A stretch of 37,037 nt of DNA from an uncultured Kiloniellaceae bacterium (lineage in GTDB: Bacteria > Desulfobacterota > Deferrisomatia > Deferrisomatales > BM512). The stretch's first letter is position 1, and every line of letters begins with the position of its first letter. The position numbers were made by a program, and so were the translations under genes. The DNA lies in NCBI GenBank assembly GCA_964195725.1, contig CAXMSR010000001.1, positions 1-37,037 of the forward strand, in the 5' to 3' direction. The notes under the pieces were generated by a model. That model did not search any database and was not told the DNA's origin. It was given only the letters and a program-made list of their open reading frames with translations. Below, one piece after another: positions 2,171 to 31,891 of the stretch.

Positions 2171-2457
2171 ACCCGGTGCATGTAGCGAAACACCTCGGCG
2201 TCCTGCACCCTCACGTCCAGCCCCATGTCATTTACCGCCGTGCTCAGCCGCTCGGTAAGCCCGGACAGCGGCATCGGACTGGTCACGCGGTCGGCCAGCA
2301 TCGTCATGGCGAAGATCTCGCCACCGAGTATCTTCTGGTTGATGTCCTCGATATTAACGCCCGTCTCGGCCAGCACCGTGGCTATCTTGGCCACAATGCC
2401 CACCTGGTCGCGCCCGATGACGGTGATGACTATCTTCTTGTGCTGCACTTCGCTCAT
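2167..2457 (-). CDS. ACT-domain protein (UPF0237-like)
   Basis: 96 aa. The pattern IVITVIGRDQVGIVAKIATVLAETGVNIEDINQ matches a single-ACT regulatory domain. AAGGAG lies upstream of the ATG. Confidence 0.75.
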   Translation of the reverse strand: MSEVQHKKIVITVIGRDQVGIVAKIATVLAETGVNIEDINQKILGGEIFAMTMLADRVTSPMPLSGLTERLSTAVNDMGLDVRVQDAEVFRYMHRV

Positions 2458-2475
2458 CTGTCTACTCCTTACAGG

Positions 2476-2565
2476 GCTAATTCTTTAAAATCTAATTCTT
2501 TAAAATCTAACCCTTCAGAATCTAACCCCTTGGAATCCAGCCCTTTAGCATCTAACCCTTTTGAT
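2476..2565. repeat. Six degenerate tandem 15-bp repeats (consensus TCTAAyyCTTTaaAA on the plus strand)
   Basis: Units are at 2476, 2491, 2506, 2521, 2536 and 2551: gctaattctttaaaa / tctaattctttaaaa / tctaacccttcagaa / tctaaccccttggaa / tccagccctttagca / tctaacccttttgat. They fill the gap between the cbiH stop (2552) and the ACT gene RBS. Confidence 0.9.
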
Positions 2566-5189: not shown

Positions 5190-5232
5190 TTTGTTTCCCC
5201 TGTTTCATGTCGAGCCATGCCCGACCTTAACT

Positions 5233-5256
5233 GTTAATTCAACCGTTAATTCAACC
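5233..5256. repeat. Perfect 12-bp tandem duplication (gttaattcaacc x2)
   Basis: Read directly at 5233-5244 and 5245-5256. It spans the cbiET stop codon (5251-5253) and the cbiET-cbiF gap. Confidence 0.9.
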
Positions 5257-6477
5257 GTCAGCTGCGTCGTCTGCATCCCGTTCGATACAGATAATGCTCA
5301 CCGGGTTTTGCGAAATCTTCATCGTGCCGGTGCCCACCTGCTTGGAGCGCGAACTCACTATCTCCGACCACGAGGCGCGCCAATCGCTAGTGGACGCAGC
5401 CCACTTTAGCGCCTCGTCAAAGGTCTCCTGCAAGACGGTAGTGATAACCACCTTGCCACCGGTCTTTAGCCTTCCGGCCACAAGATCCAGCACCTGGGCC
5501 AACATGCCCCCGCTGCCGCCGATAAAAACGCGGTCGGGGTCGGCCAAAGGCTCCAGCGCCTCTGGCGCGCCGCCCTCCACCGGTACCAGATTGGCGACCT
5601 TTAGCCGCTTGCGATTCTCGACGACGTGGCCAAACGCCTCGGCGTCGCGCTCGACGGCGTATACAGTGAGCGCCGGGGCCAAAAGCGCCGCCTCGATACC
5701 CACCGAGCCCGAGCCCGCGCCCACGTCCCACATAACGCCCTCTCGCGGCAGCAACAAGAGCCCCAGCGCCGCCGCCCGCACTTCGCGCTTGGTGATCCTG
5801 CCGCGCGGATGTGCAAAGAGCTCTTCAGGCAATCCCGGCCCTAGCGGGCGCGTGTCGGCGGCGTCATTTATTAGCACCACCACGTTCATCGACGAGCCCG
5901 TCCAAGCGGCAAAGTCCCCCACCGGGCCGCGCTCAACACTCTCGCCCGCCATCCCGATGTCGCTTACCACCGCCATCTCAAGGCTACCCCACCCAGCGTC
6001 GACGAGAAACCTCGCCACCTTTGCCGGGGTGTTCTTCTCGTCGGTCAAGAGCCCTATTTTGGGCGCGCCCAGCACCTTCGCCAATCCCGCAAAAGGTCTG
6101 CCGTGAAGGCTGGCAAAGCGCGCGTCGGACCACGAGACGCCGAGCATGGCGAACGCCGCCTGCATGGAAGAGACTGCGGGAATGACCTCCAGCTCTCCGG
6201 CGGGGAGTTTGCGACTCAGCAGCGTCGCTATACCGAAAAAGCCGGGGTCGCCGGAAGCGAGAAAGATCGCCTTCAGGGTCGGGTCGGCGGCTACACGGTT
6301 TACCGTTTCGCCCACCCTGCGCTCTACCCCCACCACTTCACCGGTGAAATTTTTTGCCAATACCATATGGCGCTTGGCGACGACGAGCAGATCGGCCCCC
6401 TTGAGCAGCGCCTCGGTCTTTGCGTCCAACACCTCGCAGCCGGGGGCCACCCCGGCGACAATTACGCGCGCGCTCAT
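5251..6477 (-). CDS. cbiET: Cobalt-precorrin-6B/7 methyltransferase-decarboxylase, fused CbiE-CbiT (CobL-like)
   Basis: 408 aa. The N-terminal half is a tetrapyrrole methylase (FLASGDPGFFGI). The C-terminal half is a class I SAM methyltransferase (VMWDVGAGSGSVGIEAA) typical of CbiT. Confidence 0.88.
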   Translation of the reverse strand: MSARVIVAGVAPGCEVLDAKTEALLKGADLLVVAKRHMVLAKNFTGEVVGVERRVGETVNRVAADPTLKAIFLASGDPGFFGIATLLSRKLPAGELEVIPAVSSMQAAFAMLGVSWSDARFASLHGRPFAGLAKVLGAPKIGLLTDEKNTPAKVARFLVDAGWGSLEMAVVSDIGMAGESVERGPVGDFAAWTGSSMNVVVLINDAADTRPLGPGLPEELFAHPRGRITKREVRAAALGLLLLPREGVMWDVGAGSGSVGIEAALLAPALTVYAVERDAEAFGHVVENRKRLKVANLVPVEGGAPEALEPLADPDRVFIGGSGGMLAQVLDLVAGRLKTGGKVVITTVLQETFDEALKWAASTSDWRASWSEIVSSRSKQVGTGTMKISQNPVSIICIERDADDAADG

Positions 6478-7685: not shown

Positions 7686-8356
7686 TAAACCTCTCCGGCG
7701 GCACCCTTGAAGAGCGCGTTTACCGAGGCGGCGGCCACGTTGGAGCCGCCTTTGTTGCCCTTGCAGCTTATCCAGTTGACGTCGGTGCGCTGCATGAGCG
7801 CGTCTTTTGATTCCGCCGCGCCGACAAAACCGACCACTACGCCGATTATAAGCTTGGGCTTGGCGACCCCCTCGTCCATCAGCTCCAGAAGGCGAAAGAG
7901 CGCCGTCGGGGCATTACCGAAGGCAAAGACCGCCTCGGGGTCCTGGCGCACTGCGCGCTCGATCGCGACGGCAGAGCGGGTCATCTCGCGCTCGCGCGCC
8001 TCACTGACCACTTCGGGGTCGTTAAGGCGGCACTGCACCTCGCAGCCAAAGCTGGCCGCGCGCACCTTGCTTACACCCGCGCGCACCATCTCGACGTCGG
8101 TGAAGATCGTGGCGCCGCCCTTTATCGCCTCGACCCCACGGGCGACGGCGTCGGGGCTCCACATCACCAGCTCGGAAAAGAGCGGGTCGCCGGTGGCGTG
8201 GATGACGCGCTTAACCAGCGCCACCTCGGCGGGGGTCAGCTGCTCCAGGTCTGCCAAATCTGCAATGAGGCGAAAGCTCTCACCCTCTATCTCTTCGGGA
8301 GCCAGCTCGTAGCCCCAGCGGCCCTTGAGGCCACCTTTTGCGTTGTCGTCTGTCAT
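7685..8356 (-). CDS. cbiC: Cobalt-precorrin-8 methylmutase CbiC
   Basis: 223 aa with VKRVIHATGDP, TDVEMV and FGNAPTAL motifs characteristic of CbiC/CobH. Confidence 0.88.
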   Translation of the reverse strand: MTDDNAKGGLKGRWGYELAPEEIEGESFRLIADLADLEQLTPAEVALVKRVIHATGDPLFSELVMWSPDAVARGVEAIKGGATIFTDVEMVRAGVSKVRAASFGCEVQCRLNDPEVVSEAREREMTRSAVAIERAVRQDPEAVFAFGNAPTALFRLLELMDEGVAKPKLIIGVVVGFVGAAESKDALMQRTDVNWISCKGNKGGSNVAAASVNALFKGAAGEV

Positions 8357-8733
8357 GTTTGATCAACCTTTCCTGCTCGCTCGGCCACGATGTCGGCCAT
8401 CAGGGGATGAACACCCAGATGTTCGGCGAGGTTTATTTTAATCTGTGGATATTCGCTGCGAAGTTTAGCCACCAGCTCGGGGATGTCTTCGCGTACATGC
8501 GCCCCCTGATAGAGGAAGAAGGGCACTACTGTAAGCTGTGTAATCCCGCTCGTCGCCAGCTTCGCCACCGTCTCTTCAAGACCGGGGTCGGCCAATTGCA
8601 GGAAGGCGGGCTCTACCCTGACGCCCTCCATGCGCTCGGCGCACCAGCCAGCCACCGTCGTCAGCGGCGCGTTGGCGCTGACCACCCGGCTGCCGTGGCC
8701 AAGCAGGATAACGGCCTTTGCCTTATCGCTCAT
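8353..8733 (-). CDS. cbiX: Sirohydrochlorin cobaltochelatase, short form (CbiX-S)
   Basis: 126 aa with LLGHGSR and VVPFFLYQGAHV motifs. It is the first gene of the cbi operon and overlaps cbiC by 4 nt. Confidence 0.85.
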   Translation of the reverse strand: MSDKAKAVILLGHGSRVVSANAPLTTVAGWCAERMEGVRVEPAFLQLADPGLEETVAKLATSGITQLTVVPFFLYQGAHVREDIPELVAKLRSEYPQIKINLAEHLGVHPLMADIVAERAGKVDQT

Positions 8734-8858: not shown

Positions 8859-11800
8859 TCAAGCGCCAGTGTCGGAGGAAGAGTCTTCCGGCGGCTCCGG
8901 GCTGCGCACCAGCGGCATGGTGAAGTAGAAGGAAGCGCCCTCGCCCGGCGAGCTCTCTACCCAGATGTAGCCGCCAAAGCGTTCCACCAGGTCGCGCGAT
9001 ATCGCCAGCCCCAGGCCGGTGCCCAGCGCCTGCTTTTTGCCGGGCTCGCGAAGCTGCTTGTAGCGGTCAAATATCTGTCTGAGCATCGAACGCTCGATGC
9101 CCTCGCCCTCGTCTACCACCGCGAAGAGCGCAAACCCCCCTCTACGCCTCACGCTTATGGTTATGCGGCTCTTTTCAGGAGCGAACTTGGCGGCGTTGCC
9201 CAAAAGATTGGTCAGTATCTGCTGAAAGCGGTCGGTGTTGCACAATACCGGCGGCAGCCCCGGCTCGACCTCGGTCAAGACCTCCACCGCCTTGTCCACC
9301 ACCAGCGGCGCGGTGGCTTCTATGGCGCGCCCCAGAGAGTCGGCGACGTCCACCGGCTCCAGATTAACCTCCAGCTCGCCCGCCTCTATCTTGGAGAGGT
9401 CGAGTAGCTCGTTGATCATCCTTGTCAACCGCTGGGCTTCGTCGTGGATGATCCCGGCGAATTTCTTGCGCCGCACCTCGTCGTCTACGTCGTAGCGCAG
9501 CAGTATCTCGGAAAAGGACTGGATCGAGGTCAGCGGGGTGCGCAATTCGTGGCTGACGGTGGAGAGAAATTCGGATTTTAGCCGGTCGATCTCGCGCAGC
9601 CTGTCGTTGGCCGCCTCTAGCTGTGCGGTGCGCTTTCGCACCTTCTCTTCCATCGACTGGCTGTAGGCGCGCACCTCTTGATAGAGCTCGGCGTTTACCA
9701 CCGCCATCGCCATCTGGTTGGCCAGAGCGCAAAAGAGCGAGACGAATTCGTCGGTAAAGTGTACCGGCCCGTGGGTAGCGTAGGCCATGAGCACGCCGAT
9801 GGGTTTGCGCTCGTGGATCATCGGCGCGTGGATAAACGCCCCTACCGGTATGAGTTTACGGAGCATCTCGAAGTGCGAAGAGGTGGGGGCGTCTTTCACG
9901 TCGCCCACCACCACCGGCTTGCCGTCGAGAAAGGCCCTGCCAAAGAGGGTGTCGCGGCTGGGGATGAGCCGGGTGGCGTCGGCGTACTCTTCGTCAAGCC
10001 CGATGCTGCTGCGCACCGCCAGCCTGCCCCGTGCGTCAAGCAGCCGCACGCCCAGATGGCTGAGGCCGAATTCGCTCTTTATCAACCGCAGGATCAGGTT
10101 CAGAAAGGCATCTACATCCATCGTGGTGGAAAGCGTGCGGGTGGCTTTGTGCAACACCGAGAGCTCGCGCACGCGGCGCTCCAGGTTCTCGCGGCTCTCG
10201 GCGAGGGTACGCGACACCGAGCCGAAGATGTCGAGGATCTCCACCGAGCGGCCCTTGGTCCAGGAGAGATAGCTCTGCACCAGCGCCCTCGCGTTTACCG
10301 CGCCGACTGCGCCGGAGAGCGCGCGTTCGGCGAGATCCACCATCTGCCGCGCCTCGGCGTTGGGCGGCAGCGTCTCCATCACCTCGGCGGCCTTGTCGGC
10401 CCCGATGAAGCGGGTCAGCAACCGCTCTACCTCTTCGCGCCCGACCCATTCCCTCGTCAATGGCGGCTCCGTGGGTTTCTCCACCGGGTCGCTACCCATC
10501 AGGCTTACCAGGATACAGCCGCCCAGGTTAAAAACGAGGCTCCACACCAGGGCGTGGCTCCAGGGGTCGAGCCCCTCCAGCCCCAGAAGCGCTTCGGGGC
10601 GAAGCCAAGAAAGACCCCACGGGCCGTTCTCCAGGATACCGGTGCCCAGCCAGCCCGACCGGGCGAAGCTTGGCAGCATCAGCGTGTAGCCCCACACCAC
10701 GAACCCGGCGCTTAGCCCGGTTATGGCGCCTCTTCGGCGCATGCCGCTCCAGTACCCCCCCAGCCCCACCGCCGGGGCGAACTGAAAGACCGCGCTAAAG
10801 CTCAAGAGCCCGGTGCTCACCAGGGTGTGCGAGTCGCCTATCCAGCGGTAGGAGGCGTAGCCCAGAAAGATTACAAACGCTATCGCGGCCCGCTTTGTTC
10901 CCAGAAGCGGGCCGCTCAGCTCCTTTTCGCCGAAACGCTTGAATACGCTTGGCACGATCAGGTGGTTGTTGATGACGGTGGAGACCGCCACCGACGAGAC
11001 GATGACCATCGAGGTCGCCGCTGAAAAACCGCCGAGAAAGGCGATGAACGCCATCGTGCGGTTACCCTGCTGGAGCGGAATGTTCAAGAGGAAGTAGTCG
11101 GCTCCCCCGCCCACCCCACCGAGCACCCCCACCAGCGCCACGGGTATGACCAGAAGGTTTATCAAAATGAGATAGAGCGGAAAGCCCCAGGCCGCGCGTT
11201 TGACGTGGCTCTCGGTCTGGTTTTCTACAACGATGACGTGAAACTGGCGGGGCAGGAGCACCACCGCCGAGGCGGAGAGGGTACAAAGGGTCAGCCACTC
11301 GCTCACCGAGGAGCCGCCCGGGCCGCCCAGAACAAAGAGCGAGGCGGTGCGCGGGTCGGCCAGCGCCTCGGTCACCACCTGGGTGAGCCCCCCGCCAACT
11401 CCCCAGGTGATGTAGACACCCAGCACGAGAAAGACGATGAGCTTCACCGCGCTCTCAAACGCCACCGCCACCACCAGCCCCTCGTGGCGCTCGGTCGGTG
11501 ATAGTGAGCGCGCGCCAAAGAGCATGGCGAACGCGCTGAGGAACGCCGCCGCCCAGAACCCGACGTCGCCGGTGATGGTGGCGCCCGACTGCCAACCGGT
11601 TATCAACTCGAAGGTGTGGGCGATCGCCTTTAACTGGAGGCCGATGTAGGGGGTCACCCCCAGCACCAACATCAGCGCTGCGATGCGCCCCAGCGCCTGG
11701 CCGTGCCCTTTTTTCGCGCTGCCAAAAAGGACATCGAGAAGATCGGGGATGTTGGTTACGCCATTTTCGCGGCAGTAGGAGATGAGCTTGGACAAGAGCG

Positions 11801-12056
11801 TGGGAGCCATGAGGAAGATGAGGGTCGGCCCGATGTAGATCGCCAGAAAGTCGACACCGCGCGTCGCAGCGCGGCCCACCGAGCCGTAGAAGGTCCACGT
11901 CGTGCAGTAAACGGCGATGGACAGCGTGTAGACCCAGGGGTTGTCGGCGATGGAGACCGAGCGCTTGCGGCGGATCGATTCCGTTACGTGCGCCAGGGCA
12001 AAGAGCCCCGAGACGTAGAGGAGACAGAAAAATGCCGTCCATAAGACCACGACCAC
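8859..12056 (-). CDS. Hybrid transporter-sensor: SLC5/sodium-solute-symporter-like domain + STAC-like linker + GAF + HisKA/HATPase histidine kinase (CbrA/CrbS-type architecture)
   Basis: 1065 aa. About 520 aa of multi-TM SSF-like sequence is followed by a soluble linker and a GAF-like region. Then come STVSHELRTPLTSI (H-box), NLLGNAAKF (N-box), VVDEGEGI (G1) and GTGLGLAISR (G2). The GTG start has an AAGAGG RBS, 4 nt after the stop of the upstream mini-ORF. Confidence 0.85.
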   Translation of the reverse strand: MVVVLWTAFFCLLYVSGLFALAHVTESIRRKRSVSIADNPWVYTLSIAVYCTTWTFYGSVGRAATRGVDFLAIYIGPTLIFLMAPTLLSKLISYCRENGVTNIPDLLDVLFGSAKKGHGQALGRIAALMLVLGVTPYIGLQLKAIAHTFELITGWQSGATITGDVGFWAAAFLSAFAMLFGARSLSPTERHEGLVVAVAFESAVKLIVFLVLGVYITWGVGGGLTQVVTEALADPRTASLFVLGGPGGSSVSEWLTLCTLSASAVVLLPRQFHVIVVENQTESHVKRAAWGFPLYLILINLLVIPVALVGVLGGVGGGADYFLLNIPLQQGNRTMAFIAFLGGFSAATSMVIVSSVAVSTVINNHLIVPSVFKRFGEKELSGPLLGTKRAAIAFVIFLGYASYRWIGDSHTLVSTGLLSFSAVFQFAPAVGLGGYWSGMRRRGAITGLSAGFVVWGYTLMLPSFARSGWLGTGILENGPWGLSWLRPEALLGLEGLDPWSHALVWSLVFNLGGCILVSLMGSDPVEKPTEPPLTREWVGREEVERLLTRFIGADKAAEVMETLPPNAEARQMVDLAERALSGAVGAVNARALVQSYLSWTKGRSVEILDIFGSVSRTLAESRENLERRVRELSVLHKATRTLSTTMDVDAFLNLILRLIKSEFGLSHLGVRLLDARGRLAVRSSIGLDEEYADATRLIPSRDTLFGRAFLDGKPVVVGDVKDAPTSSHFEMLRKLIPVGAFIHAPMIHERKPIGVLMAYATHGPVHFTDEFVSLFCALANQMAMAVVNAELYQEVRAYSQSMEEKVRKRTAQLEAANDRLREIDRLKSEFLSTVSHELRTPLTSIQSFSEILLRYDVDDEVRRKKFAGIIHDEAQRLTRMINELLDLSKIEAGELEVNLEPVDVADSLGRAIEATAPLVVDKAVEVLTEVEPGLPPVLCNTDRFQQILTNLLGNAAKFAPEKSRITISVRRRGGFALFAVVDEGEGIERSMLRQIFDRYKQLREPGKKQALGTGLGLAISRDLVERFGGYIWVESSPGEGASFYFTMPLVRSPEPPEDSSSDTGA

Positions 12057-12060
12057 GCGA

Positions 12061-12246
12061 CTACCTCTTTACGTCGTTGACAAAGGAGAGGGCCACCACA
12101 AACACCCACACCCCGAAGATGTAGAGCGGCACAAGGGGCCAACCACCCACCGTCTCCTGCCGATTGACGGCGACGATCAGCGGAGGCCCGAAGAGCACTA
12201 GCGAGAGCACCGTCAGCGCGGCAGTGCGCTGTGACTTTCTCTTCAT
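12061..12246 (-). CDS. Small two-TM membrane protein, DUF3311-like (typical partner of SSF transporters)
   Basis: 61 aa: a basic N-terminus, two hydrophobic segments, and GGWPLVPLYIFGVWVF between them. GAGAAGG RBS. It is tightly coupled to the SLC5-kinase gene. Confidence 0.6.
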   Translation of the reverse strand: MKRKSQRTAALTVLSLVLFGPPLIVAVNRQETVGGWPLVPLYIFGVWVFVVALSFVNDVKR

Positions 12247-12351
12247 CGGAGGCCTTCTCTATACAGTGACGGTTAAGCGTTCCCACCTTTTCCGGGAGCT
12301 GCGCCGTTATTTAGATAGCTATGCAAACAAACCTGAGCCTGGAAAAAACCC

Positions 12352-15096
12352 TTAGAACCGGGACGACTGCCACTTCAGAAGAAGCATTTTATCACAAAAA
12401 CGCTTTGCATCCGCCAGCGTCGTCACACCCCTGTTTTCAAGTATCGGGATAAGCCTGACCAGTATCTCGGCGGTGGCGACGGCGTCGCCCAAGGAAGTGT
12501 GCCTGCCCACAATTTCAATCCCCATGCGCTCGGCCAGCGCGTCCAGCGAGTGCCCCACCAGGTCGCGGTGCGCGCCGTAGGAGAGAAAGAGGGTGTCCAG
12601 CACCGGGTTGGTCAGCACCGCAAGCTCCATCCCCTCGGTAGAAACCTCCAGCATCTTCATGTCAAAAGCGGCGTTGTGCGCCACCAGCACCGCGCTGCCC
12701 ACCCACTCGTTGAACTGGGGCAGCACCTGCCGGATGGTGGGGGCGTCGGCGACCATCGATTGCTTTATGCCGTGAATCCTGATCGAGGACTCCGGTATGT
12801 GCATCTGTGGGTTCACCAGCGAGTGGAAGGTGTCCACCTTGAGCACCTTGCCGCCGCGCACCCTGACACCCGAGATGCTGATTATGCGGTCGCCCCCTGA
12901 GGGGTTTAGCCCGGTGGTCTCGGTGTCGAAGACGACCATCTCCAGCTCTCTTATGGGGGTGTCGAGCTGTGTTTGCGCCTCGACTCCCGGATGGGCGGCG
13001 AAGATATCGAAGTCGTAGAACTCTACCTGGTTGTCCACCAGCCTCGGCTCTTCGTTGTGGCCAGGCAGCACCGAGGCCTTGGTCATCGCCAGCCGCACCT
13101 CCAGGCCGTCTTCCACCTGCCGGGCCCAGAGCGCGGCGCGGTTGTTGCGCACCACCACCTTTAACGGCACGCTCTCTTCATTGGTCTGCTCCAGGATGAT
13201 CTTGTCGAGCTCCGAGGGGTCGGCGTCTACTCGGCCGGTGAGCTTGTAGGTGAACACCACCGAGTCTTCCTCGACCTCAAGGCGCACCTCCAGGGGAATG
13301 AAGCCGTCGGATTTCTTTATCACCCACCGCAGCACCGCACAAAGCGCGGTGAGCCAGCCAAACGGCTCTACCGCCACCAGCGGCACCGGGGTATCGGGGA
13401 TGTCTACCTTGCCAAAAAGCCCCGGTTCGAGCTTCAGGGAATCTTCCAGCAGCATCTTTGGGTCTACCGGCTGGATGGGCCAGCGGACAAACTGAAAATC
13501 GGGCGAGGTGCGCTCCAGCTCGTCGAGCACTCCAACGGTGCGTTCGGCCTCTTCGGCCAGCGCCTTCATGAACGCCGCCTGACGGTCGGGGTCGAGATCA
13601 CAGCGGCGAGAGAGGATGTCGATCATCGAGCGGATCGTCGATACCGGCCCCTTTAGCTTGGCTGGCAGCTCGCGCAGGACGTGTTCAGCCTCACGTTCGC
13701 GGTTGGCCTCTTCGGTGATGTCGCGCAGCAGCAGCAGGTACCCGGCGCGCTCCCCCTCGGTGTCGGGGATCGCCGAGATGACGCCGCGAAGCAGCCTCGC
13801 CCCCTCTTTGCAGGGAAAGATTATCCGCTCTACCGCTTCTCCGCCCGCGTCCCACGCTTCGCGCACGCGGCGTATGTAGTAGTCGAGCCGCGTGGCGGGC
13901 AATAGCCTGCCCAGCGGCGCGCCGATGCCCGAGACGGGCCCGGTGGAGAGCATCGTCTTTGCACGGGGGTTCATCAAGAGCACCTTGGTCTCTTCGTTTA
14001 TCAGCACCACGGCGTCGCCCATGGTGCGAAGCAGCATCGCAAGGTGGTTGCGCTCGTCTTCGAGGTCGTGGTTTATCCGCACCACGCGCTCTTCGAGCTC
14101 GCCGTAGGAGTTTTGCAACGATTCGGCCATGTGGTTGAACTCGTGCGCCAGCTGCTCCAGTTCGTCGCCGGTGTCCACGCTCAGCCGGTGCCCAAGATTG
14201 ATGCGGGAGATGATCTCGGCGCCGTTCTTGATCGCCAGGATCGGTTTTGTGATGCCCCCGGTCACGCGCCACGCCAGCGCTATTACCGTGCAGATGAGGG
14301 CGAGGAGCAGCAAGAACACCTTGGTGGCGGCGGAGTTGAAATCGCTGAGAACCTGCTCTTCGCCGAGCAGTATCGCTATGCGCCAGTTGCCCGTGAGGTC
14401 CGGGTCGTTTTTACCGATCGGCACCTCGCCGACAAAGAGGGTGTTCTCCCCATCCTCCACGCGCTCCCAGCCGGCCACCCCCCACGCCGCCGTTGAAGGC
14501 ATCGGCTCGACACCGCGCTCTGAGGTGGCCAGGATGCCTGCGGGCGATTGCAGCGTGGCCGCGCTATAGTGGCCAAGCCGGTAGCCCCTCACCCCCTCGA
14601 AGATGAAGTCGGGGGAGAAGTCTACGCGCAGCACCCCCAACACCTCGCCCCGGGGCGAGCTAATGTGGCGGCGGATGATGATGTTGCCGAAGTCTTCGAG
14701 GGTTATCTCCCGCGCGGCGGGCATCGTCCCCTGCTCTCTTTTTTCGATACTTATCGCCATCGCGAGGGGTTGGTGGCGTAGCGCCGAGGCAAAAAGCCCG
14801 GTCGGGTAGGGCTGGCCGTCGAGCAGATGCACCACTACCTCTTGCTCGCCTGCGATGGACAGAGACCACCGGTCCATGCGCGCAAGCTCGCTCTCGACAG
14901 AGCCGCCCAGGTAGGTGGCCTCTTCCACAAGCGAAGTACCGGCCAGCTCGACGACATCTGTGCGGGCGACGTGGTAGAGCGCTATCATCGAGAGGACGAA
15001 GGGCAGGAGGATCAACGCCGCAAAGGTAGCGGTTACGCGCACCTTGAGGCGCTTAAAAAGCGGGATGGTGGTCGTAGTGATGTCGGGGGTGCTCAA
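12352..15096 (-). CDS. Membrane sensor (Cache-like periplasmic domain, HAMP, PAS, degenerate HisKA/HATPase-like core) fused to a C-terminal DEDDh (DnaQ/RNase T-like) 3'-5' exonuclease domain
   Basis: 914 aa. TM segments are near aa 21-43 and 258-278, and a HAMP-like region is at aa 279-333 (DELEQLAHEFNHMAESL). The exonuclease motifs are VVFDTETTGL (Exo I), LVAHNAAFD (Exo II) and GRHTSLGDA (Exo III, H-x4-D). The TTG start overlaps the TGA of the receiver gene (TTGA). Confidence 0.8.
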   Translation of the reverse strand: MSTPDITTTTIPLFKRLKVRVTATFAALILLPFVLSMIALYHVARTDVVELAGTSLVEEATYLGGSVESELARMDRWSLSIAGEQEVVVHLLDGQPYPTGLFASALRHQPLAMAISIEKREQGTMPAAREITLEDFGNIIIRRHISSPRGEVLGVLRVDFSPDFIFEGVRGYRLGHYSAATLQSPAGILATSERGVEPMPSTAAWGVAGWERVEDGENTLFVGEVPIGKNDPDLTGNWRIAILLGEEQVLSDFNSAATKVFLLLLALICTVIALAWRVTGGITKPILAIKNGAEIISRINLGHRLSVDTGDELEQLAHEFNHMAESLQNSYGELEERVVRINHDLEDERNHLAMLLRTMGDAVVLINEETKVLLMNPRAKTMLSTGPVSGIGAPLGRLLPATRLDYYIRRVREAWDAGGEAVERIIFPCKEGARLLRGVISAIPDTEGERAGYLLLLRDITEEANREREAEHVLRELPAKLKGPVSTIRSMIDILSRRCDLDPDRQAAFMKALAEEAERTVGVLDELERTSPDFQFVRWPIQPVDPKMLLEDSLKLEPGLFGKVDIPDTPVPLVAVEPFGWLTALCAVLRWVIKKSDGFIPLEVRLEVEEDSVVFTYKLTGRVDADPSELDKIILEQTNEESVPLKVVVRNNRAALWARQVEDGLEVRLAMTKASVLPGHNEEPRLVDNQVEFYDFDIFAAHPGVEAQTQLDTPIRELEMVVFDTETTGLNPSGGDRIISISGVRVRGGKVLKVDTFHSLVNPQMHIPESSIRIHGIKQSMVADAPTIRQVLPQFNEWVGSAVLVAHNAAFDMKMLEVSTEGMELAVLTNPVLDTLFLSYGAHRDLVGHSLDALAERMGIEIVGRHTSLGDAVATAEILVRLIPILENRGVTTLADAKRFCDKMLLLKWQSSRF

Positions 15097-15458
15097 TTTT
15101 TCAGGAGTGACCGGATGGCTTCAAAGAGCTCGGCGGTCTGGAAGGGTTTGGTCACGTACGCGTCGGCCCCCGTCTCAAGCCCCTTCTTGCGCTCAAGCGA
15201 CTGGCCCTTGGCGGTCAACATCACCACCTTGGGCGCGTCGGGCTGAGCCTTTAAAATACGGCACACCTCGTAGCCGTCTTTTCGGGGCATCGCCACATCC
15301 AGAAGCACCAGATCGGGCTTAAACTCCTCTGCCACCACCAGAGCTTCTTCGCCGTCCGAGGCCGTACGCACCTCGAAATCCTCCTCTTCGAGAATGAATT
15401 CCAGAGAGAGTAAGATGTTTGGCTCGTCATCCACAGCGAGAATCTTGAACTCGGACAT
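15093..15458 (-). CDS. Stand-alone response regulator receiver (CheY-like)
   Basis: 121 aa with DDEP acidic pocket, LVLLDVAMP (phospho-acceptor Asp), MLTAKG and VTKPF. GAAGAGG RBS. Confidence 0.9.
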   Translation of the reverse strand: MSEFKILAVDDEPNILLSLEFILEEEDFEVRTASDGEEALVVAEEFKPDLVLLDVAMPRKDGYEVCRILKAQPDAPKVVMLTAKGQSLERKKGLETGADAYVTKPFQTAELFEAIRSLLKN

Positions 15459-15654: not shown

Positions 15655-16314
15655 ATGCAAACACCGAGCTATTACGACAGACGACGAAAAACACGGCGCA
15701 TCAACCTCTTCACCAAGCCCCGGCTGGCGCTGTGGGCGGCGGCACTGGTAGCGGCAATAGCGCTGGGGTCTGCCATCTCCGAACGGGCTGAGGAGCGCGC
15801 GCTCATGCAGGGCGAAGAGACCTCCCAAAAAGTAGCCGCGCTCTTGGCTGCCGCCAGAACCGAGACGACAGGCGGGCAAGAGAGCGACGAAGCCGAAAAA
15901 CAGGGCCGCAGAAAGAGCGCACGCGCCAACCTGGAAAAAGCCCTGGGGCTCATGCGCGGCAACGACTTACTGGAGAGTCACCCCGCCTACATCGCCGCCT
16001 TGAGTGACCTGGCCGCCGTCATCCTGGCAGAGACCGGCCCAACCGCAAGCGAGCTGCAAGCCGCGATAAAACTCCTCGACGAAGCCTGGGGAAGAGCCAA
16101 CGACAAGATCGGCGGAGAGGTCCAAATCGTAGCCGCCGACAAAAAGCTCCGCGCCCGCATAGCCCGTGACAGGGGGCTAGCCGAGCTTTTGGCCGACAAC
16201 CCCGCAGAAGCACGAAAGTGGTACGAAACCGCGAAAGAGCTGGGGGCGCAAGACAGGGTCATCATTGAGAGGCTGGAGCTGCTGGACAATCTAGAACGGT
16301 GGAACAAGCAGTAA
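15655..16314 (+). CDS. Hypothetical N-terminally anchored, helix-rich protein
   Basis: 219 aa: a basic N-terminus (RRRKTRR), one hydrophobic segment (LALWAAALVAAIALGSA), then an Ala/Glu/Leu-rich sequence. GC3-rich codons. No SD is visible before the ATG. Confidence 0.55.
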   Translation: MQTPSYYDRRRKTRRINLFTKPRLALWAAALVAAIALGSAISERAEERALMQGEETSQKVAALLAAARTETTGGQESDEAEKQGRRKSARANLEKALGLMRGNDLLESHPAYIAALSDLAAVILAETGPTASELQAAIKLLDEAWGRANDKIGGEVQIVAADKKLRARIARDRGLAELLADNPAEARKWYETAKELGAQDRVIIERLELLDNLERWNKQ

Positions 16315-16372
16315 AAGCGGTGGGACAAGCAGTAAACCTGAAATCAACCAAAGCCACAAAAATGGAGCATAA

Positions 16373-16795
16373 ATGACTAGCGAAACACAGATTAAAGTCC
16401 GTGGTTACCACCTGGACGTCTACGGCCACGTCAACAACGCCAGATATCTGGAATTTCTGGAAGAAGGGCGCTGGCAAGCCTTCGAAGAACAAGGCAGCTT
16501 CGACGCCCTCACAAAAGCAGGGCTGGGTTTCTCCGTCGTCAACATCAACATCAACTACCGGCGCCCGGCGCTTCTGGGCGACGTGCTCGCAATCGAAACC
16601 TCGCTAAAATCAATCAGCAACAAGAGCGCCATAATGCACCAAGTGGTGCGCCTTAGCGACACGACAAAAATCGTCGCCCAAGCCGACGTCACCTTCGTAA
16701 TGGTCTCGTCTCAATCTGGCCGCGCCGTCGAGCTGAATGAGGCGCTTATGGAAAAGCTGGGGTTGGCGGGTATGCACGAAAGTGGCGCTGAATAG
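16373..16795 (+). CDS. Acyl-CoA thioesterase, YbgC/4HBT (hotdog) family
   Basis: 140 aa with YHLDVYGHVNNARYLEFLEE, the catalytic-Asp region typical of YbgC-type thioesterases. GGAG RBS. Confidence 0.8.
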   Translation: MTSETQIKVRGYHLDVYGHVNNARYLEFLEEGRWQAFEEQGSFDALTKAGLGFSVVNININYRRPALLGDVLAIETSLKSISNKSAIMHQVVRLSDTTKIVAQADVTFVMVSSQSGRAVELNEALMEKLGLAGMHESGAE

Positions 16796-17189
16796 CGAAC
16801 AGATTAGATATTAACTCCTTCGAGGAGCGTTAGCTCCGAGCCCGCCTCTGACTTGGCCTTTGACCCACCCTCCCCCGTTAGCACCCGAGTGAGCGAAGGC
16901 GAGCGCGCTTAGGCGCATGCGTGTCTGAGGCCGAAGGCCGAGTTTCATGCGCCTTGCGAGCCGCAGCGAACGCTTGCGCACGGGCGGGCGCTTTCGGGGT
17001 GCGCCCCAGCGGGACTTATTCCCGCGTTACCCGATATTTTTTAGTTTCAGGCACAGCCTGACAACTTCCAAAGGAGGGATCGCGTCATCCCTCCTTGGTC
17101 GCCAAGAGCCTCCGAAGGAGGCGTGGCGAAACGCCTTTGACGTTGATCTCGAATTTGACCCCGACCTTGACTCAAAACAAACAGAAAAA

Positions 17190-17210
17190 GCCCACCTGTA
17201 TAAGGTGGGC
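17190..17210 (-). terminator. Intrinsic terminator of the cobQ/small-ORF transcript
   Basis: Stem GCCCACC / GGTGGGC with loop TGTATAA. On the minus strand it is followed by TTTTTCTGTTTGTTTT. Confidence 0.7.
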
Positions 17211-17269
17211 TTCCGATCATCCTGACCACTTGGGGCAAAGCCCCACCCCAAAAAAGGCGGCAGCCCCCC

Positions 17270-17443
17270 CTAGTCTAACCCCATCGCCTTCTCCAGCCGC
17301 GCAACCTCGACTTCCAGCTCGGCGCGCTCGGCGTCGCCGAGCCCCCCTCTCTCCAGCTTGCGCTTTAGCCCCATCAGCCGCATCTCTTCGCGGTAGTCGG
17401 AGCAGCCGTAGTTTTTGCTGACACCTTTGCTGGAGCCGCTCAT
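17270..17443 (-). CDS. Small conserved-looking hypothetical protein (57 aa), translationally coupled to cobQ
   Basis: Not in the ORF track (under 60 aa). My translation is MSGSSKGVSKNYGCSDYREEMRLMGLKRKLERGGLGDAERAELEVEVARLEKAMGLD. The ATG overlaps the cobQ TGA (ATGA), codons are GC3-rich, and the terminator lies 60 nt downstream. Confidence 0.45.
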   Translation of the reverse strand: MSGSSKGVSKNYGCSDYREEMRLMGLKRKLERGGLGDAERAELEVEVARLEKAMGLD

Positions 17444-18957
17444 GCGCCCTGCTCAATGATCTTCAGGATCGCTTCGATGTCGAGGCACTCTGCCAAGAGC
17501 GCGGCGAGTTTTTCGTAGCCCTCTTCTTTTTTGGCGGCGAACGATTGCGTCTGGACGTGGTGGCCCCGGTGTTTTGCCAAGAGCGCGTGGCGAAAGTTGT
17601 CGTTGTCGAAGATGCCGTGCAGGTAGGTGCCCGCCACCGTGGCGTCGGGGCTCACCGCGCCGTCGCTGTGGAATTCGTCGCCCTCCATGCGACGCAGCTT
17701 CATCAGCGGCGTGGCGCCGCCCCCAAGGGTGGTGCGTCCCATGTGGATCTCGTAGCCATGCAGCTCTTCGCTGTCTTCGCTGTCTGCGCACCAGCCAAGC
17801 GCGCCGCGCTCGATCACGCCTCTGGAGAGCGCGGTGACTTTGTCGGTCTCCATCACCGGCTCGATGTCCAAGAGCCCCAGCCCCGCGATCTCGGGGGTCG
17901 AGCCCTCTACGGCGTCGGGGTCGCGCACTACTTTGCCCCGCATCTGGTAGCCGCCGCATACCCCTACTATGGAAGCGCCTCTCTGGTGCGCCGCCAGCAC
18001 TTGGTCCGCCAGCCCCGCTTCGCGCAACGTCTTTAAGTCGTCGATGGTGTTTTTTGACCCGGGGAGGATGACGATGTCGGCGTCGCCAAGCTTGCCGCCC
18101 GGCCTGACAAAGTCGAGCACTACGCCCTCTTCGCCGAGGAAGGGGTCGAAATCGGTGAAGTTGGACATTCTGCGCGCCACCACCACCGCCACCCGCAGGG
18201 TGCCGGTGCCTTCAGCGTCGCCTGCGCTGTCAAAATGCAGGCCGTCTTCTTCTTGTATGAAGATGTCGGTGTACCACGGCACGGTACCGAGAAAGGGCTT
18301 GCCGGTGCGCTTGGAGATCGCCTCATATGCGGGGTCGAGAAGGGTTGCGTCGCCCCGGAATTTATTGATGATGAAGCCCTTGATTAATCGCGCCTCTTCG
18401 GGGGCGATCAGCTCCAGCGTGCCCACCAGGGAGGCGAAGACGCCGCCCTTGTTGATGTCGCCCACCAAGAGCACCGGCGCTTTGGCCTCCAGCGCAAAGC
18501 CCATGTTGGCGATGTCGCCCTCGCGCAGATTTATCTCGGCCGGGCTGCCCGCGCCCTCTATCAGGATGAGGTCGTGGCGGCTTTTGAGGCGATTGTAGCT
18601 GTCGAAGACGACTTCGCGCGCCTTGTGTTTGAACTCGTGGTACTGCACCGCCTTCATGTTGGAGTGAACCTTGCCCTGGAGGATGACCTGCGCGCCCACG
18701 TCGGTGGTGGGCTTTAAGAGCACCGGGTTCATGTCCACATGGGGGGCCAGCCGCGCGGCCTCGGCCTGCACCACCTGGGCGCGGCCCATCTCAGCCCCCT
18801 CGGCGGTAATGCAGGAGTTTAGCGCCATGTTCTGCGGTTTGAAGGGGGCGACGTCTACGCCGCGATTGGCCAAGAGCCTGCACAACCCCGCCACCAGCAC
18901 CGATTTGCCTACATCGGAGCCGCACCCCTGTATCATTAACGATTGTGCCATAGTCAT
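17440..18957 (-). CDS. cobQ: Cobyric acid synthase CobQ/CbiP
   Basis: 505 aa with LMIQGCGSDVGKS (P-loop-like), APFKPQNMALNS, and a C-terminal GATase domain (VGVCGGYQM, YEIHMG, GTYLHG). Confidence 0.9.
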   Translation of the reverse strand: MTMAQSLMIQGCGSDVGKSVLVAGLCRLLANRGVDVAPFKPQNMALNSCITAEGAEMGRAQVVQAEAARLAPHVDMNPVLLKPTTDVGAQVILQGKVHSNMKAVQYHEFKHKAREVVFDSYNRLKSRHDLILIEGAGSPAEINLREGDIANMGFALEAKAPVLLVGDINKGGVFASLVGTLELIAPEEARLIKGFIINKFRGDATLLDPAYEAISKRTGKPFLGTVPWYTDIFIQEEDGLHFDSAGDAEGTGTLRVAVVVARRMSNFTDFDPFLGEEGVVLDFVRPGGKLGDADIVILPGSKNTIDDLKTLREAGLADQVLAAHQRGASIVGVCGGYQMRGKVVRDPDAVEGSTPEIAGLGLLDIEPVMETDKVTALSRGVIERGALGWCADSEDSEELHGYEIHMGRTTLGGGATPLMKLRRMEGDEFHSDGAVSPDATVAGTYLHGIFDNDNFRHALLAKHRGHHVQTQSFAAKKEEGYEKLAALLAECLDIEAILKIIEQGA

Positions 18958-19057
18958 TTCAGATAATTTCCACTGTCAATACGGACGTTGCCCATTGGCC
19001 TCGCAGACGGCTAGAATGGAGTGATTAACCCACCCCAACCTACAAGAAGGCCGATAA

Positions 19058-19246
19058 ATGGAAGAGAACGGACAGAACCAGCTCGAAGACGAGGCCGCAC
19101 CAAGGCAGAACCCCACCCCCGAAGAGGAGGCACCGCCCCCCTTTAGCCGCAAGAAGAAGCTGGCCCACGCCGCGTTCTGGGTCGCAGCCTGCTACGTCAC
19201 CTGGCTATTGTCGGTGAAGCTGATGATGTGGGTCACGGGTAACTAG
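19058..19246 (+). CDS. Small hypothetical membrane protein
   Basis: 62 aa: an acidic/Pro-rich N-terminus, a KKK motif, then one TM segment (AAFWVAACYVTWLLSV). AGAAGG RBS and GC3-rich codons. Confidence 0.45.
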   Translation: MEENGQNQLEDEAAPRQNPTPEEEAPPPFSRKKKLAHAAFWVAACYVTWLLSVKLMMWVTGN

Positions 19247-19297
19247 CTGATCCGCAGTACTCCGGCCCTCTGCACCCCGGCCCTCCGGGCTACTCCG

Positions 19298-19786
19298 CTA
19301 GAAGGGGAGCGCGACGCCGAAATTTATGCCGAAGAAGCCATCGGAGTTGTCTCCCAGAATCGTACCCAGCTCAACTTCGCCGTAGAGCGCCAGTCCCGGC
19401 TTAATGTAATTTTTGTAGCCCACCACTGCGCTGGTTATCAACTCCAGATCGCTGTCGCTGTCTACCTTTACGATGCCCACCCCTGCCGTCACGCCTGCGT
19501 AGGCGGCGCTTACATCATTGATGGGGAAGAGGTAGATGGCCTCGGCCGCGCCGGTGTGCGCCGTGTCTCCGCCCAGGCCCGACTGGACTCTGGCACCCAG
19601 CAGCAGCAGATCGGTGTAGTAGATGTCGATGCGCCCCGTCAAGACCAACATAGTGTCGGCGTTTTCAAGGAATCTGCCGCCGAGAGACCCCGAAAACTCG
19701 ACGTCGCCCTGCTTGGGCATTGCCGCCCAGGAGGTAACCGAAACGAGGACCAGAGCTGCCGCTACCAGAAGTTTCAAGGTTTTCAT
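19298..19786 (-). CDS. Small outer-membrane beta-barrel protein (OmpX/OmpW/OmpA-TM-like)
   Basis: 162 aa. It has a signal peptide MKTLKLLVAAALVLVSVTSWA, alternating hydrophobic beta-strand pattern, aromatic girdle residues and a C-terminal ...GVALPF (terminal Phe). Confidence 0.7.
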   Translation of the reverse strand: MKTLKLLVAAALVLVSVTSWAAMPKQGDVEFSGSLGGRFLENADTMLVLTGRIDIYYTDLLLLGARVQSGLGGDTAHTGAAEAIYLFPINDVSAAYAGVTAGVGIVKVDSDSDLELITSAVVGYKNYIKPGLALYGEVELGTILGDNSDGFFGINFGVALPF

Positions 19787-19949: not shown

Positions 19950-21119
19950 TCACGTAAACCCCGGTCGGCGTCGCTGAGACAGATATGCGTAGAGCAGCGC
20001 GCCCACCAACAACGCCGCCGAGACAGTGCCCAAAAGCGCCGTCTCCTCGGCGTTTGCCGTCAGCGCCGCCACGGTGGCGGTCATCTCCAGCGAAGAGTAC
20101 ACCCAGTCGAGCGCCACCCCCATCGCCAGCGCGCTTAACGCAATCGAGGCGAGATAACGAAGCGAAGCACCCAGGCCCAAACTTTTTCCCACCGCTATCA
20201 GGGTGGCTACGTTGGTGGCAGGCCCCACCAGCAAAAAGACGAGCGCAGCACCGGGGCTAAGCCCCTTCAATATCAACGCGGCGGCCACCGGGGTAGACGC
20301 GGTGGCGCAGATATACATGGGAACCCCGGCCACAAGCATCACCAGCATAGCCACAAAGCCGCCGCCGAGCCCCGCTTCTAGCCACCCCTGCGGCACCAGC
20401 GCCGAGATAGCCCCGGCGGCCACGATCCCCACCGCCAGCCAGGGGGCGATCTCCCACAAAAGCTCCACAAAGCCGTATTTCAGACCCGCCGCCAAGCGCG
20501 CCGCCAAGCTCTCTTTATTCTTACCGGAGGAGACTTCTTCCCCGCAGCCCGCTTTTAAATCAGAAGCGGTGCCGATCTTTGAACCAGAATCGGAGGCGCA
20601 GCCGACTTTTAAATCAGAAGCGCAGCCTACCTCTGAAGCAGAATCGCAGGCGCAGCCGACCTTTGAACCGGAGGCGGGCGCCACCTCATCGCGGGTGCCC
20701 ACCACCGTCTCTACCACCCCGGCTACCACCGCCGTTACCAGCGCCGAAAGGGGCCGCCACACCGTCATCAAGGGGTCCATCAGCGCGTAGGTCACCGCGA
20801 TAGAGTCCACCCCCGTTTCCGGTGTGGAGATGAGAAACGACACCGTCGCACCCTTCGTCGCACCCTGCTTGCGAAGCCCCATCGCCGCAGGCAACACCCC
20901 GCACGAGCAGAGCGGCAGGGGTATCCCCCACAGCGCGGCACGCACCACAGGGCCAAACCCCTTGCCCCCCAGATGCGCCCCCACGGCTTCGGTCGAGACA
21001 AAAGCCTGCACCAGCCCGGCGGCGGCAAACCCCAGAATCAACCAGGGCGCGGCCTCCACCAGCACCAGCCACGAGTGGGCCAGAACATTAATCGCTATTT
21101 CAACAACTGCTGCAAACAT
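19950..21119 (-). CDS. UPF0718/DUF318-family permease (ArsP / SO_0444-like putative metal(loid) efflux protein) with a Cys-repeat cytoplasmic loop
   Basis: 389 aa, multi-TM, with PLPLCSCGVLP (vicinal Cys motif of this family). The central loop is GSKVGCACDSASEVGCASDLKVGCASDSGSKIGTASDLKAGCG. The gene is immediately downstream of an ArsR-family gene. Confidence 0.65.
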   Translation of the reverse strand: MFAAVVEIAINVLAHSWLVLVEAAPWLILGFAAAGLVQAFVSTEAVGAHLGGKGFGPVVRAALWGIPLPLCSCGVLPAAMGLRKQGATKGATVSFLISTPETGVDSIAVTYALMDPLMTVWRPLSALVTAVVAGVVETVVGTRDEVAPASGSKVGCACDSASEVGCASDLKVGCASDSGSKIGTASDLKAGCGEEVSSGKNKESLAARLAAGLKYGFVELLWEIAPWLAVGIVAAGAISALVPQGWLEAGLGGGFVAMLVMLVAGVPMYICATASTPVAAALILKGLSPGAALVFLLVGPATNVATLIAVGKSLGLGASLRYLASIALSALAMGVALDWVYSSLEMTATVAALTANAEETALLGTVSAALLVGALLYAYLSQRRRPGFT

Positions 21120-27794: not shown

Positions 27795-27901
27795 TAGATA
27801 AAAAGAGAGCTAATTGAGTATAACTTTAACCTTACGCACTTAAACGCCCTGACGTTTCGCCCTTAAGCGGAGAGACTTCAGGTAGGTGCAGGAGGGGTGC
27901 C

Positions 27902-31889: not shown

Positions 31890-31891
31890 CC

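Follow-up and report, generated by a model that had tools for sequence, protein, structure and literature searches.

A stretch of 37,037 nucleotides (nt) from an uncultured Kiloniellaceae bacterium (contig CAXMSR010000001.1; the whole stretch is called the window below) carries on its minus strand a module of four genes, one of which encodes a 914-amino-acid (aa) membrane sensor that ends in a DEDDh 3'-5' exonuclease domain. The locus represents, in the Desulfuromonadales, a signalling module that is widespread but uncharacterised. Judged by its motifs, the 914-aa protein is a pseudokinase, neither a kinase nor a dedicated phosphatase, and its exonuclease domain is catalytically intact as far as the motif set tells. 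The functional context of the module is acetate/monocarboxylate uptake (a DUF294 nucleotidyltransferase, a DUF4212/VC_2705 symporter and acetyl-CoA synthetase, Acs), not cobalamin. Taken as a whole, the observations are best explained by a pathway from a kinase to a receiver (REC) that gates a membrane exonuclease and acts on the uptake of acetate or short-chain carboxylates, an explanation that we hold with as much doubt as belief. The genes of the module are as follows:

15093-15458, minus strand: REC, a stand-alone receiver of 121 aa (Pfam Response_reg, E-value 2.9e-31)
12352-15096, minus strand: sensor pseudokinase-exonuclease of 914 aa, whole gene including the stop codon (list of open reading frames, Pfam, PDB match and model)
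12061-12246, minus strand: 61-aa two-transmembrane hairpin peptide, next to the kinase on its upstream side (like CbrX in position and topology only)
8859-12056, minus strand: SLC5(CbrA-like)-GAF-HisKA-HATPase_c sensor histidine kinase of 1065 aa (Pfam and PDB 10ED)

An earlier note on this DNA had placed four open reading frames (ORFs) here, with the TTG start of the second one overlapping the stop of the REC gene. This layout holds: the TTG start of the 914-aa ORF is embedded in the AAT-TGA of the REC stop, and the overlap amounts to 4 nt, so that the two genes are coupled in translation. A scan for consensus promoters and terminators over 8.5-16.5 kb gave no signal between the four genes beyond what is expected from shuffling, which is consistent with a single operon but does not prove it. 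The note was also right that no DNA-binding response regulator lies near the module, the nearest being PilR (31886-33274) inside a type IV pilus cluster. PilR is the sole DNA-binding response regulator and the sole sigma-54 activator in the window, and it is unrelated to the module.

The C-terminal part of the 914-aa protein comprises two features:

12355-12942, minus strand: DEDDh 3'-5' exonuclease domain with a conserved C-terminal tail, aa 719-914 (Pfam RNase_T, PDB 2p1j)
13000-13029, minus strand: juxta-exonuclease motif R-P-E-[YF]-Y-D-F-D-L-F, here QVEFYDFDIF, aa 690-699 (family alignment)

That the protein ends in a full DnaQ/RNase T-type domain with its catalytic motifs intact had been claimed before, and it is borne out; the domain lies on the cytoplasmic side of the membrane. 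The Pfam profile RNase_T (PF00929) matches aa 721-879 over its full length with an E-value of 3.2e-36 (cutoff 24 bits). The acidic and His residues of Exo I-III were checked for misalignment or absence; none is misaligned, and all five are invariant in 78 of 78 relatives. They are D724 and E726 of Exo I (D724-T-E726 in VVFDTETTG), D812 of Exo II (N-x2-F-D, here H807-N808-A-A-F-D812), and H866 and D871 of Exo III, which has the H-x4-D form of the 'h' subtype (H866-TSLG-D871). The same residues are also invariant among 11 orthologues. The juxta-exonuclease motif is nearly invariant: the consensus residue is present in 61-77 of the 78 sequences, depending on the position, with the Y/F position split 38/37.

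Such a domain could also belong to a DNA-replication or repair exonuclease, i.e. a paralogue of DnaQ/Pol III epsilon that was fused to sensor domains by chance. The source annotations read 'DNA polymerase-3 subunit epsilon', the database labels of the family are 'DNA polymerase III subunit epsilon' and 'exonuclease domain-containing protein', and the nearest solved structures are the exonuclease domains of PolC, DnaQ and DinG, with the T. maritima PolC exonuclease as the best sequence match in the PDB (E 3.5e-26), followed by DnaQ and DinG. With these structures (2P1J, 1J53, 8ZEF) the window domain shares the fold, Exo I DxE, Exo II NxxFD and Exo III Hx4D, and its identity to 2P1J is 34-36%. 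However, it stays below all equivalog cutoffs, and far below those of NCBIfam for DnaQ and PolC (104.7 bits against 222.7 for TIGR01406, and 102.1 against 196 for PRK05711), and, unlike PolC, DnaQ and DinG, it is tethered to the membrane, comes with no polymerase or helicase, and is accompanied by the RPE[YF]YDFDLF motif and the conserved C-terminal tail. While DnaQ is a stand-alone soluble protein of ~240 aa, the window protein is a HAMP-PAS-pseudokinase fusion of 914 aa with two transmembrane segments, and its gene is coupled to REC and found in clusters with transporter, acs and DUF294 genes; no replication or repair genes recur in these neighbourhoods. We regard a chance fusion of a replication or repair exonuclease as very improbable.

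Upstream of the exonuclease, the protein resembles the core of a histidine kinase, with counterparts of the dimerisation and histidine phosphotransfer (DHp) hairpin and of the catalytic and ATP-binding (CA) domain:

13507-13716, minus strand: pseudo-DHp two-helix hairpin, aa 461-530 (helices 461-497 and 503-530 in the AlphaFold2 (AF2) model)
13078-13473, minus strand: pseudo-CA alpha/beta domain, aa 542-673 (AF2 model and Foldseek; without N, G1 and G2 boxes)

The earlier note had taken the protein for a classical sensor kinase with a DHp/CA-like core. As regards the predicted fold, the core stands: in Foldseek the full-length model aligns with entire histidine kinases, over 720 columns in the case of the WalK model 9a5d, and the modelled DHp-CA part matches VicK 4i5s (E 1e-15), HK853 and YycG. 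The kinase chemistry, however, does not, and with all the catalytic kinase motifs missing the protein is no classical sensor kinase. Neither Pfam HisKA nor Pfam HATPase_c matches the 914-aa protein. The H-box reads 'SHELRTPL' in the neighbouring kinase; its counterpart in the 914-aa protein is 'PAKLKGPV', and the family consensus has 'TEGSRAPL'. His is found at the phospho-acceptor position in 0 of the 78 relatives, most of which have Glu (48 sequences), Asp (7) or Gln (6); the window protein has Ala there (aa 479, nt 13660-13662), and the position is variable within its clade. The HisKA phosphatase motif H-E/D-x-x-T/N is absent as well, with E-G-S-R-A in the consensus and A-K-L-K-G in the window, as against H-E-L-R-T in the partner kinase. 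As to the ATP-binding boxes, the family consensus has neither the N-box Asn nor DxGxG nor GxGxG. With these motifs gone, the 914-aa protein could not itself serve as a step of a phosphorelay. A tblastn search with the pseudokinase segment alone recovered only the closest orthologues because this segment diverges fast; full-length MAFFT alignments were used for the family instead.

The receiver has the phospho-acceptor site residues D10, D11, D54, T82 and K104, all of which are conserved in 73 orthologous RECs, and the H-box of the SLC5 kinase is intact. This kinase had been described in the earlier note as one half of a pair formed by DUF3311 and an SLC5-GAF kinase, and the description of the kinase is confirmed. 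Its N-terminus (aa 14-465) matches the cryo-EM structure of the SLC5 domain of Pseudomonas CbrA (PDB 10ED) with an E-value of 6e-65; Pfam SSF gave no match to this part, and the SLC5 homology was shown through the CbrA structure instead. Pfam further assigns GAF (646-786), HisKA (827-893) and HATPase_c (941-1049), and the kinase is not a hybrid one, as nothing follows HATPase_c, which ends at aa 1049 of 1065. The DUF3311 label of the 61-aa ORF, on the other hand, was dropped, for no Pfam match to it was found at E<=0.01 nor even at E<=5. Likewise, the 61-aa ORF has no sequence match among PDB chains, those of the 10ED entry included, and its analogy to CbrX was kept as a positional one only. 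It is nevertheless a real gene, because tblastn finds its homologues directly upstream of the SLC5 kinase in nine loci (L002, L004, L005, L007, L014, L020, L023, L062 and L067); the taxa concerned are Chloroflexaceae, Alphaproteobacteria, Desulfobacterales, Desulfuromonadaceae and Zoogloea.

The closest described counterpart of this part of the module in architecture is CbrXA (PDB 10ED; PMC13488458), in which CbrX, a 58-aa two-transmembrane peptide encoded just upstream of CbrA, binds the transporter domain. The SLC5 domains are homologous, and in both cases a gene for a two-transmembrane peptide of ~60 aa lies directly upstream of the kinase. Beyond the transporter domain, CbrA has STAC and PAS before its kinase core; in the window kinase Pfam gives GAF, not PAS, and no STAC was detected, its alignment to 10ED ending at chain residue 451, before STAC. 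In addition, CbrA signals to the sigma-54 activator CbrB, whereas the partner in the window is a REC-only protein of 121 aa.

Whether the four genes travel together, a question raised by the earlier note, is answered by the gene order in relatives. In all three closer orthologous loci examined (L001, L002 and L004) the set of REC, sensor-exonuclease, small ORF and SLC5-GAF kinase is kept whole, including the 4-nt overlap. Of 84 loci, 73 have a REC-only gene as the next gene upstream on the same strand, a genetic pairing that we take to be obligate, and in 43 of these 73, across phyla, stop and start overlap by exactly 4 nt; three of the loci without REC (L060, L074, L079) end at a contig edge just upstream of the gene. 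Within 10 kb, 55 of the 83 loci surveyed for neighbours have an SLC5 kinase, 56 a DUF294 nucleotidyltransferase and 37 an SSF transporter; these neighbour counts are lower bounds because many contigs are short. Kinase (K), REC (R) and exonuclease (E) genes are arranged as K-R-E or R-E-K, with DUF294 and the transporter flanking them. A complete example is the Zoogloea locus L022, with the order SLC5-kinase, REC, sensor-exonuclease, CBS-DUF294, small ORF and symporter; no DNA-binding regulator was found in the representative clusters, L022 among them. The symporter belongs to the VC_2705 family (TIGR03648, 774 bits in L022 and 511 in L002, cutoff 321), at least 10 loci encode a DUF4212 small subunit, and at least 11 an acetyl-CoA synthetase (ACAS_N plus AMP-binding). 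Unsupervised clustering of the neighbouring ORFs was noisy in high-GC loci owing to antisense ORFs and single-linkage merging, and its use was limited to picking Acs, DUF4212 and SSF for a subsequent check with Pfam. Solved structures match the DUF294 protein in its CBS and cNMP-binding domains only. Two loci carry the exonuclease gene as a pair of paralogues: L017 has two REC plus sensor-exonuclease pairs (9387-11857 and 16905-19433), and L069 has two DUF294 plus sensor-exonuclease pairs without REC (2431-6049 and 11092-14719).

In the window itself, the module is flanked by cobalamin genes, as had been noticed before, with cbiX at 8353-8733 and cobQ at 17440-18957, and one might suppose that it senses or regulates cobalamin biosynthesis. 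Indeed, cbiX, cbiC, cbiD, a cbiET-like gene and cbiG stand on one side and cobQ on the other, and locus L001 keeps cbi genes downstream. However, no cobalamin genes are adjacent to the module in L002 and L004, whose proteins are orthologues at 41-46%, nor in the 80 loci of the genome scan, where DUF294, symporter and acs genes recur instead. Moreover, the Rfam gathering scan of the window returned a tRNA-Leu only, with no cobalamin riboswitch in the window and no riboswitch or small RNA near the module. The adjacency is incidental, because it is common to L001 only and absent from L002, L004 and the wider family; the cobalamin link was rejected for want of conserved synteny, and we give it hardly any credence.

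The neighbourhoods also bear on the idea of a sensor-gated nuclease for defence against phages or plasmids. PADLOC does report matches of the protein to a CRISPR-associated DEDDh model and to PDC-S48, but these span the generic exonuclease domain only; the neighbours are conserved core-metabolism genes across phyla, and no other defence genes or mobile-element context occur in the window. A defence system was rejected on these grounds as extremely improbable.

The family to which the 914-aa protein belongs is large. A profile search covering 1.84 billion cluster representatives (clusters at 50% identity) returned 3,204 proteins or clusters at E<=1e-30, fragments and short forms included, from Proteobacteria, Desulfobacterota, Nitrospirota and Chloroflexota. 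The 150 best matches all have E<=3e-120, and most of them are 670-740 aa long and span profile positions ~250-900. The genome scan, which used one genome per GTDB species and returned 80 loci, found proteins that share ~30% identity over the whole region from HAMP onwards; they come from Alpha-, Beta- and Gammaproteobacteria, Desulfobacterales, Nitrospirota and Chloroflexota. The 914-aa protein is a clade-specific, dCache-bearing variant of a very large, apparently uncharacterised family. The literature searched contained no paper describing the HAMP-PAS-pseudokinase-exonuclease or its receiver, in agreement with the earlier note, whose author knew of no characterised system of this kind; with 3,204 clusters, though, the protein is not an isolated oddity.

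Among the closest relatives of aa 685-914 are short exonucleases of 294-325 aa with two transmembrane helices, the juxta-exonuclease motif in the form RPEFYD(F/H)DL and a DEDDh domain, 48% identical to the window protein over aa 676-914. These short forms (L085 8001-8885, L087 8001-8969; P0120, P0079, P0126, P0132) adjoin genes for CBS-DUF294 and SSF or DUF4212-SSF, and proteins in which the exonuclease is fused to CBS-DUF294 were found as well. The position of the short two-transmembrane forms beside DUF294 and transporter genes suggests that membrane tethering is ancestral to the module. Its likely starting point was a membrane exonuclease with DUF294 and a symporter; HAMP, PAS and the pseudokinase were then probably inserted, with REC and the SLC5 kinase acquired, and, in a likely third stage within the clade of the window, dCache was inserted into the sensor and GAF into the kinase.

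These short forms help to weigh another explanation, in which the 914-aa protein is an accessory regulator and not the output: through its DHp-like domain it would form heterodimers with the SLC5 kinase or draw REC away from it, thereby tuning the state of phosphorylation, the output of phosphorylated REC (REC~P) would be an unlinked partner elsewhere, and the exonuclease would be constitutive or act as a nucleotide-binding sensor. Helix 1 of the pseudo-DHp is still closely similar to the HisKA helix of the partner kinase (R+3, P+5, L+6, R+10, E+14), and the Glu or Asp with which 55 of 78 relatives replace the lost His may be phosphomimetic, imitating the phosphorylated state for binding. Single-domain receivers such as CheY and DivK often act on several targets, which also speaks for an accessory role. 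Against it, the conservation of all five catalytic residues across phyla argues for enzymatic use, and the 4-nt coupling of REC with the exonuclease gene is far more consistent than that of REC with the kinase gene. Finally, the short forms lack the pseudokinase but keep the exonuclease and the membrane anchor, which points to the exonuclease as the ancestral functional core. An accessory role is therefore unlikely in our view, though less so than the replication, defence and cobalamin explanations.

For a pathway in which REC gates the exonuclease, the nearest precedent is DivL of Caulobacter (PDB 4Q20), which has Tyr in place of His and no enzymatic output domain and modulates the kinase CckA. 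DivK~P reportedly binds the DHp of this pseudokinase as an input, an arrangement termed 'reverse' signalling that is credited to Tsokos et al. in 2011 and Childers et al. in 2014. As in DivL-DivK, a DHp-CA protein with a replaced phospho-acceptor His is paired in the window with a stand-alone REC, here by genetic linkage. Unlike DivL, the window pseudokinase is fused to a DEDDh exonuclease, and its gene is coupled to the REC gene by overlap.

A metabolic precedent is offered by MxtR/ErdR, also known as CrbS/CrbR, in which a hybrid kinase that ends in a REC (MxtR/CrbS) works with a LuxR-type DNA-binding regulator (ErdR/CrbR). In P. putida, PP_0354 (cNMP-CBS-DUF294) and PP_0353 (an RNase_T exonuclease) form an operon (PMC9927547), and they are the genes that depend most on this SLC5-kinase system (PMC9927547; bioRxiv 10.64898/2026.09.07.749794), ErdR binding the PP_0354 promoter (PMC9927547; PMC9765439; bioRxiv 10.64898/2026.09.07.749794). 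MxtR/ErdR also controls the cluster PA3232-PA3235 of P. aeruginosa, in which PA3234 encodes the acetate permease ActP (PMC9765439), and in that species the homologues of pp_0353 and pp_0354 adjoin actP and yjcH (PMC9927547). Hence both systems tie an SLC5-type kinase to DUF294, an RNase_T exonuclease and acetate permease or acs genes. In Pseudomonas, however, the link is transcriptional, through ErdR, and the exonuclease is a separate protein, whereas in the window the exonuclease is fused and has a REC of its own; the window kinase has no C-terminal REC and the module no DNA-binding regulator, so that it is not a CrbS/CrbR system.

The same neighbourhood as in the relatives of the window module occurs in the DUF4212/VC_2705 clusters of Price et al. 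(bioRxiv 10.1101/072470), where DUF4212 and symporter genes are cofit with a nearby 'COG2905 (RNase T domain protein)' gene; the authors speculate that this gene is needed for expression of the symporter. Genetics thereby suggests that the symporter needs the nuclease/nucleotidyltransferase gene for its function, albeit in Shewanella (Sama_1525) and P. stutzeri (Psest_0349), whereas the window contains neither the symporter nor DUF294. DUF294 itself, a Pol-beta nucleotidyltransferase of the GlnD/GlnE-like kind, has a domain of the HEPN clan at its C-terminus (PMC3710099).

From these results, the following mechanism may be proposed. The SLC5 kinase, with its two-transmembrane partner peptide, would phosphorylate REC, and REC~P may then dock on the pseudo-DHp hairpin in the manner of DivK~P on DivL; docking on a DHp-like hairpin is proposed because a pseudokinase should be unable to autophosphorylate or dephosphorylate. 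The exonuclease at the inner membrane would be turned on or off by this docking in combination with signals from HAMP/PAS and, in the clade of the window alone, from a periplasmic dCache ligand. In the weakest step of the scheme, the exonuclease would strip 3'-terminal nucleotides added by the DUF294 enzyme, from RNA or from a nucleotide-derived signal, as the GlnD/GlnE-like nature of the partner suggests a cycle of addition and removal on a 3' end or on a nucleotide-derived molecule. This would place the uptake and activation of acetate or short-chain carboxylates under a post-transcriptional control that needs no DNA-binding regulator; judging from the cofitness data, the expression or activity of the symporter may be what is affected. 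The earlier note had pictured a phosphorelay from the kinase to REC that controls, or is controlled by, a ligand-gated nuclease. The order kinase, REC, nuclease is the most economical reading, with the difference that the sensor-exonuclease, as a pseudokinase, is no relay step itself.

Several points weigh against the proposed pathway. DUF294, symporter and acs genes are all missing from the 37-kb window, and the metabolic link for the source genome consequently rests on the orthologous loci L001, L002, L005 and L007, where DUF294 adjoins the module. Deletion of PP_0353 or PP_0354 causes mild propionate and pyruvate defects only, and the function of both genes is stated to be unknown (PMC9927547; bioRxiv 10.64898/2026.09.07.749794); besides, we infer the orthology of PP_0353 to the window exonuclease domain from gene context only. 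Binding of REC to the pseudo-DHp is proposed by analogy, and the full-length AF2 model of the 914-aa protein has a modest pLDDT of 68. An RNA or nucleotide-signal substrate is a guess, as are the nanoRNA, pGpG and other nucleotide messengers put forward in the earlier note, and the closest exonucleases, those of PolC, DinG and DnaQ, act on DNA. The most far-reaching form of the proposal is a pathway without a transcription factor, in which a tethered exonuclease gated by REC~P opposes the DUF294 nucleotidyltransferase on a shared substrate and so sets acetate/monocarboxylate uptake in thousands of lineages. We consider it possible but doubtful; both enzymes would work on a specific RNA at its 3' end (for instance a small RNA, or the transcript of the symporter or of acs) or else on a new, nucleotide-derived second messenger.

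The usual end points of two-component systems are transcription factors, second-messenger enzymes and motor switches. To the best of our knowledge, no two-component case ending in an exonuclease has been described, and none was found in the literature searched. The components of the module, namely a two-component system, a pseudokinase with its receiver and a DEDDh nuclease, are each of a known type. What is new in the window is the covalent fusion and the receiver coupling, which point to a nuclease as a two-component output, while the unexplained association of DUF294 and the exonuclease with SLC5-kinase regulons is already on record (PMC9927547; bioRxiv 10.1101/072470). Three groups have met the DUF294/exonuclease pair without an explanation, as targets of MxtR/ErdR in Pseudomonas and through the cofitness of DUF4212 symporters, and the fused, REC-coupled form gives a direct experimental handle on this open question. 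Gene order ties the family, in at least four phyla, to SLC5 transceptor kinases, symporters of the acetate/lactate type, Acs and DUF294, and in Geobacter-like bacteria living on acetate the module may be a central control point of substrate uptake.

The N-terminal half of the 914-aa protein contains the sensory domains:

14980-15036, minus strand: first transmembrane segment, TM1, aa 21-39 (hydropathy scan; a helix in the AF2 model)
14332-14979, minus strand: periplasmic dCache-like ligand-binding domain, aa 40-255 (AF2 domain model and Foldseek; a lineage-specific insertion)
14275-14331, minus strand: second transmembrane segment, TM2, aa 256-274 (hydropathy scan)
14113-14262, minus strand: HAMP, aa 279-328 (Pfam, E 3.8e-9)
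13705-14046, minus strand: cytoplasmic PAS, aa 351-464 (Pfam PAS_4, PAS_9 and PAS; kept family-wide)

TM1 and TM2 bracket an extracytoplasmic stretch of ~215 aa in the hydropathy scan, and HAMP and PAS follow, exactly as the earlier note had it. The periplasmic domain has no sequence match in Pfam. Modelled alone with AF2, it reached a pLDDT of 88, and Foldseek matched this model to the dCache domains of PctA/PctC, DctB and TlpC (E ~1e-7, TM-score ~0.6); nearly all of the top 50 matches are dCache/PDC sensors, including PctA/B/C, DctB, TlpC and Mlp24. In the model, a long N-terminal helix is followed by two PAS-like alpha/beta modules between the two transmembrane segments, as in dCache. The dCache-like nature of this domain, which the earlier note had left to be checked, is thus supported by model and structure search alike. 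The window protein and those of L001 and L002 have the periplasmic domain in its long form, L004 has a shorter one, and Desulfuromonadaceae relatives at 47% identity have none; ~8 of the 150 best representatives in the profile search have the long domain, while nearly all relatives have two transmembrane helices with a ~20-residue loop, followed by HAMP. The dCache domain is found only in the clade of the window.

Divergent from the REC gene, the plus strand carries at 15655-16795 a gene for a 219-aa protein with a weak TPR_12 match and then one for a 4HBT-type acyl-CoA thioesterase (16373-16795). In L001, a divergent cNMP-CBS-DUF294 gene holds the position of these TPR_12/4HBT genes. Between the 4HBT gene and the 3' end of cobQ (minus strand), ~640 nt (16796-17439) contain short ORFs only, with no Rfam match. 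The single RNA gene detected in the window, the tRNA-Leu (anticodon TAA), lies at 426-511 on the minus strand. A type IV pilus cluster occupies 26100-33274 on the plus strand and encodes a PilB-like ATPase (T2SSE plus MshEN), a PilT-like ATPase, PilC (T2SSF), a PilS-like kinase (6TM_PilS) and the PilR-like sigma-54 activator. A PcnB-like poly(A) polymerase with a PolyA_pol head, an RNA-binding and an Arg-rich C-terminal domain is encoded at 33398-34711 on the minus strand, ~18 kb from the sensor-exonuclease; the presence of this 3'-end nucleotidyltransferase near the sensor-exonuclease is probably a coincidence. Finally, an ArsP_1-family permease encoded at 19950-21119 on the minus strand has an internal Cys-rich repetitive loop, SKVGCACDSASEVGCASDLKVGCASDSGSKIGTASDLKAGCG.

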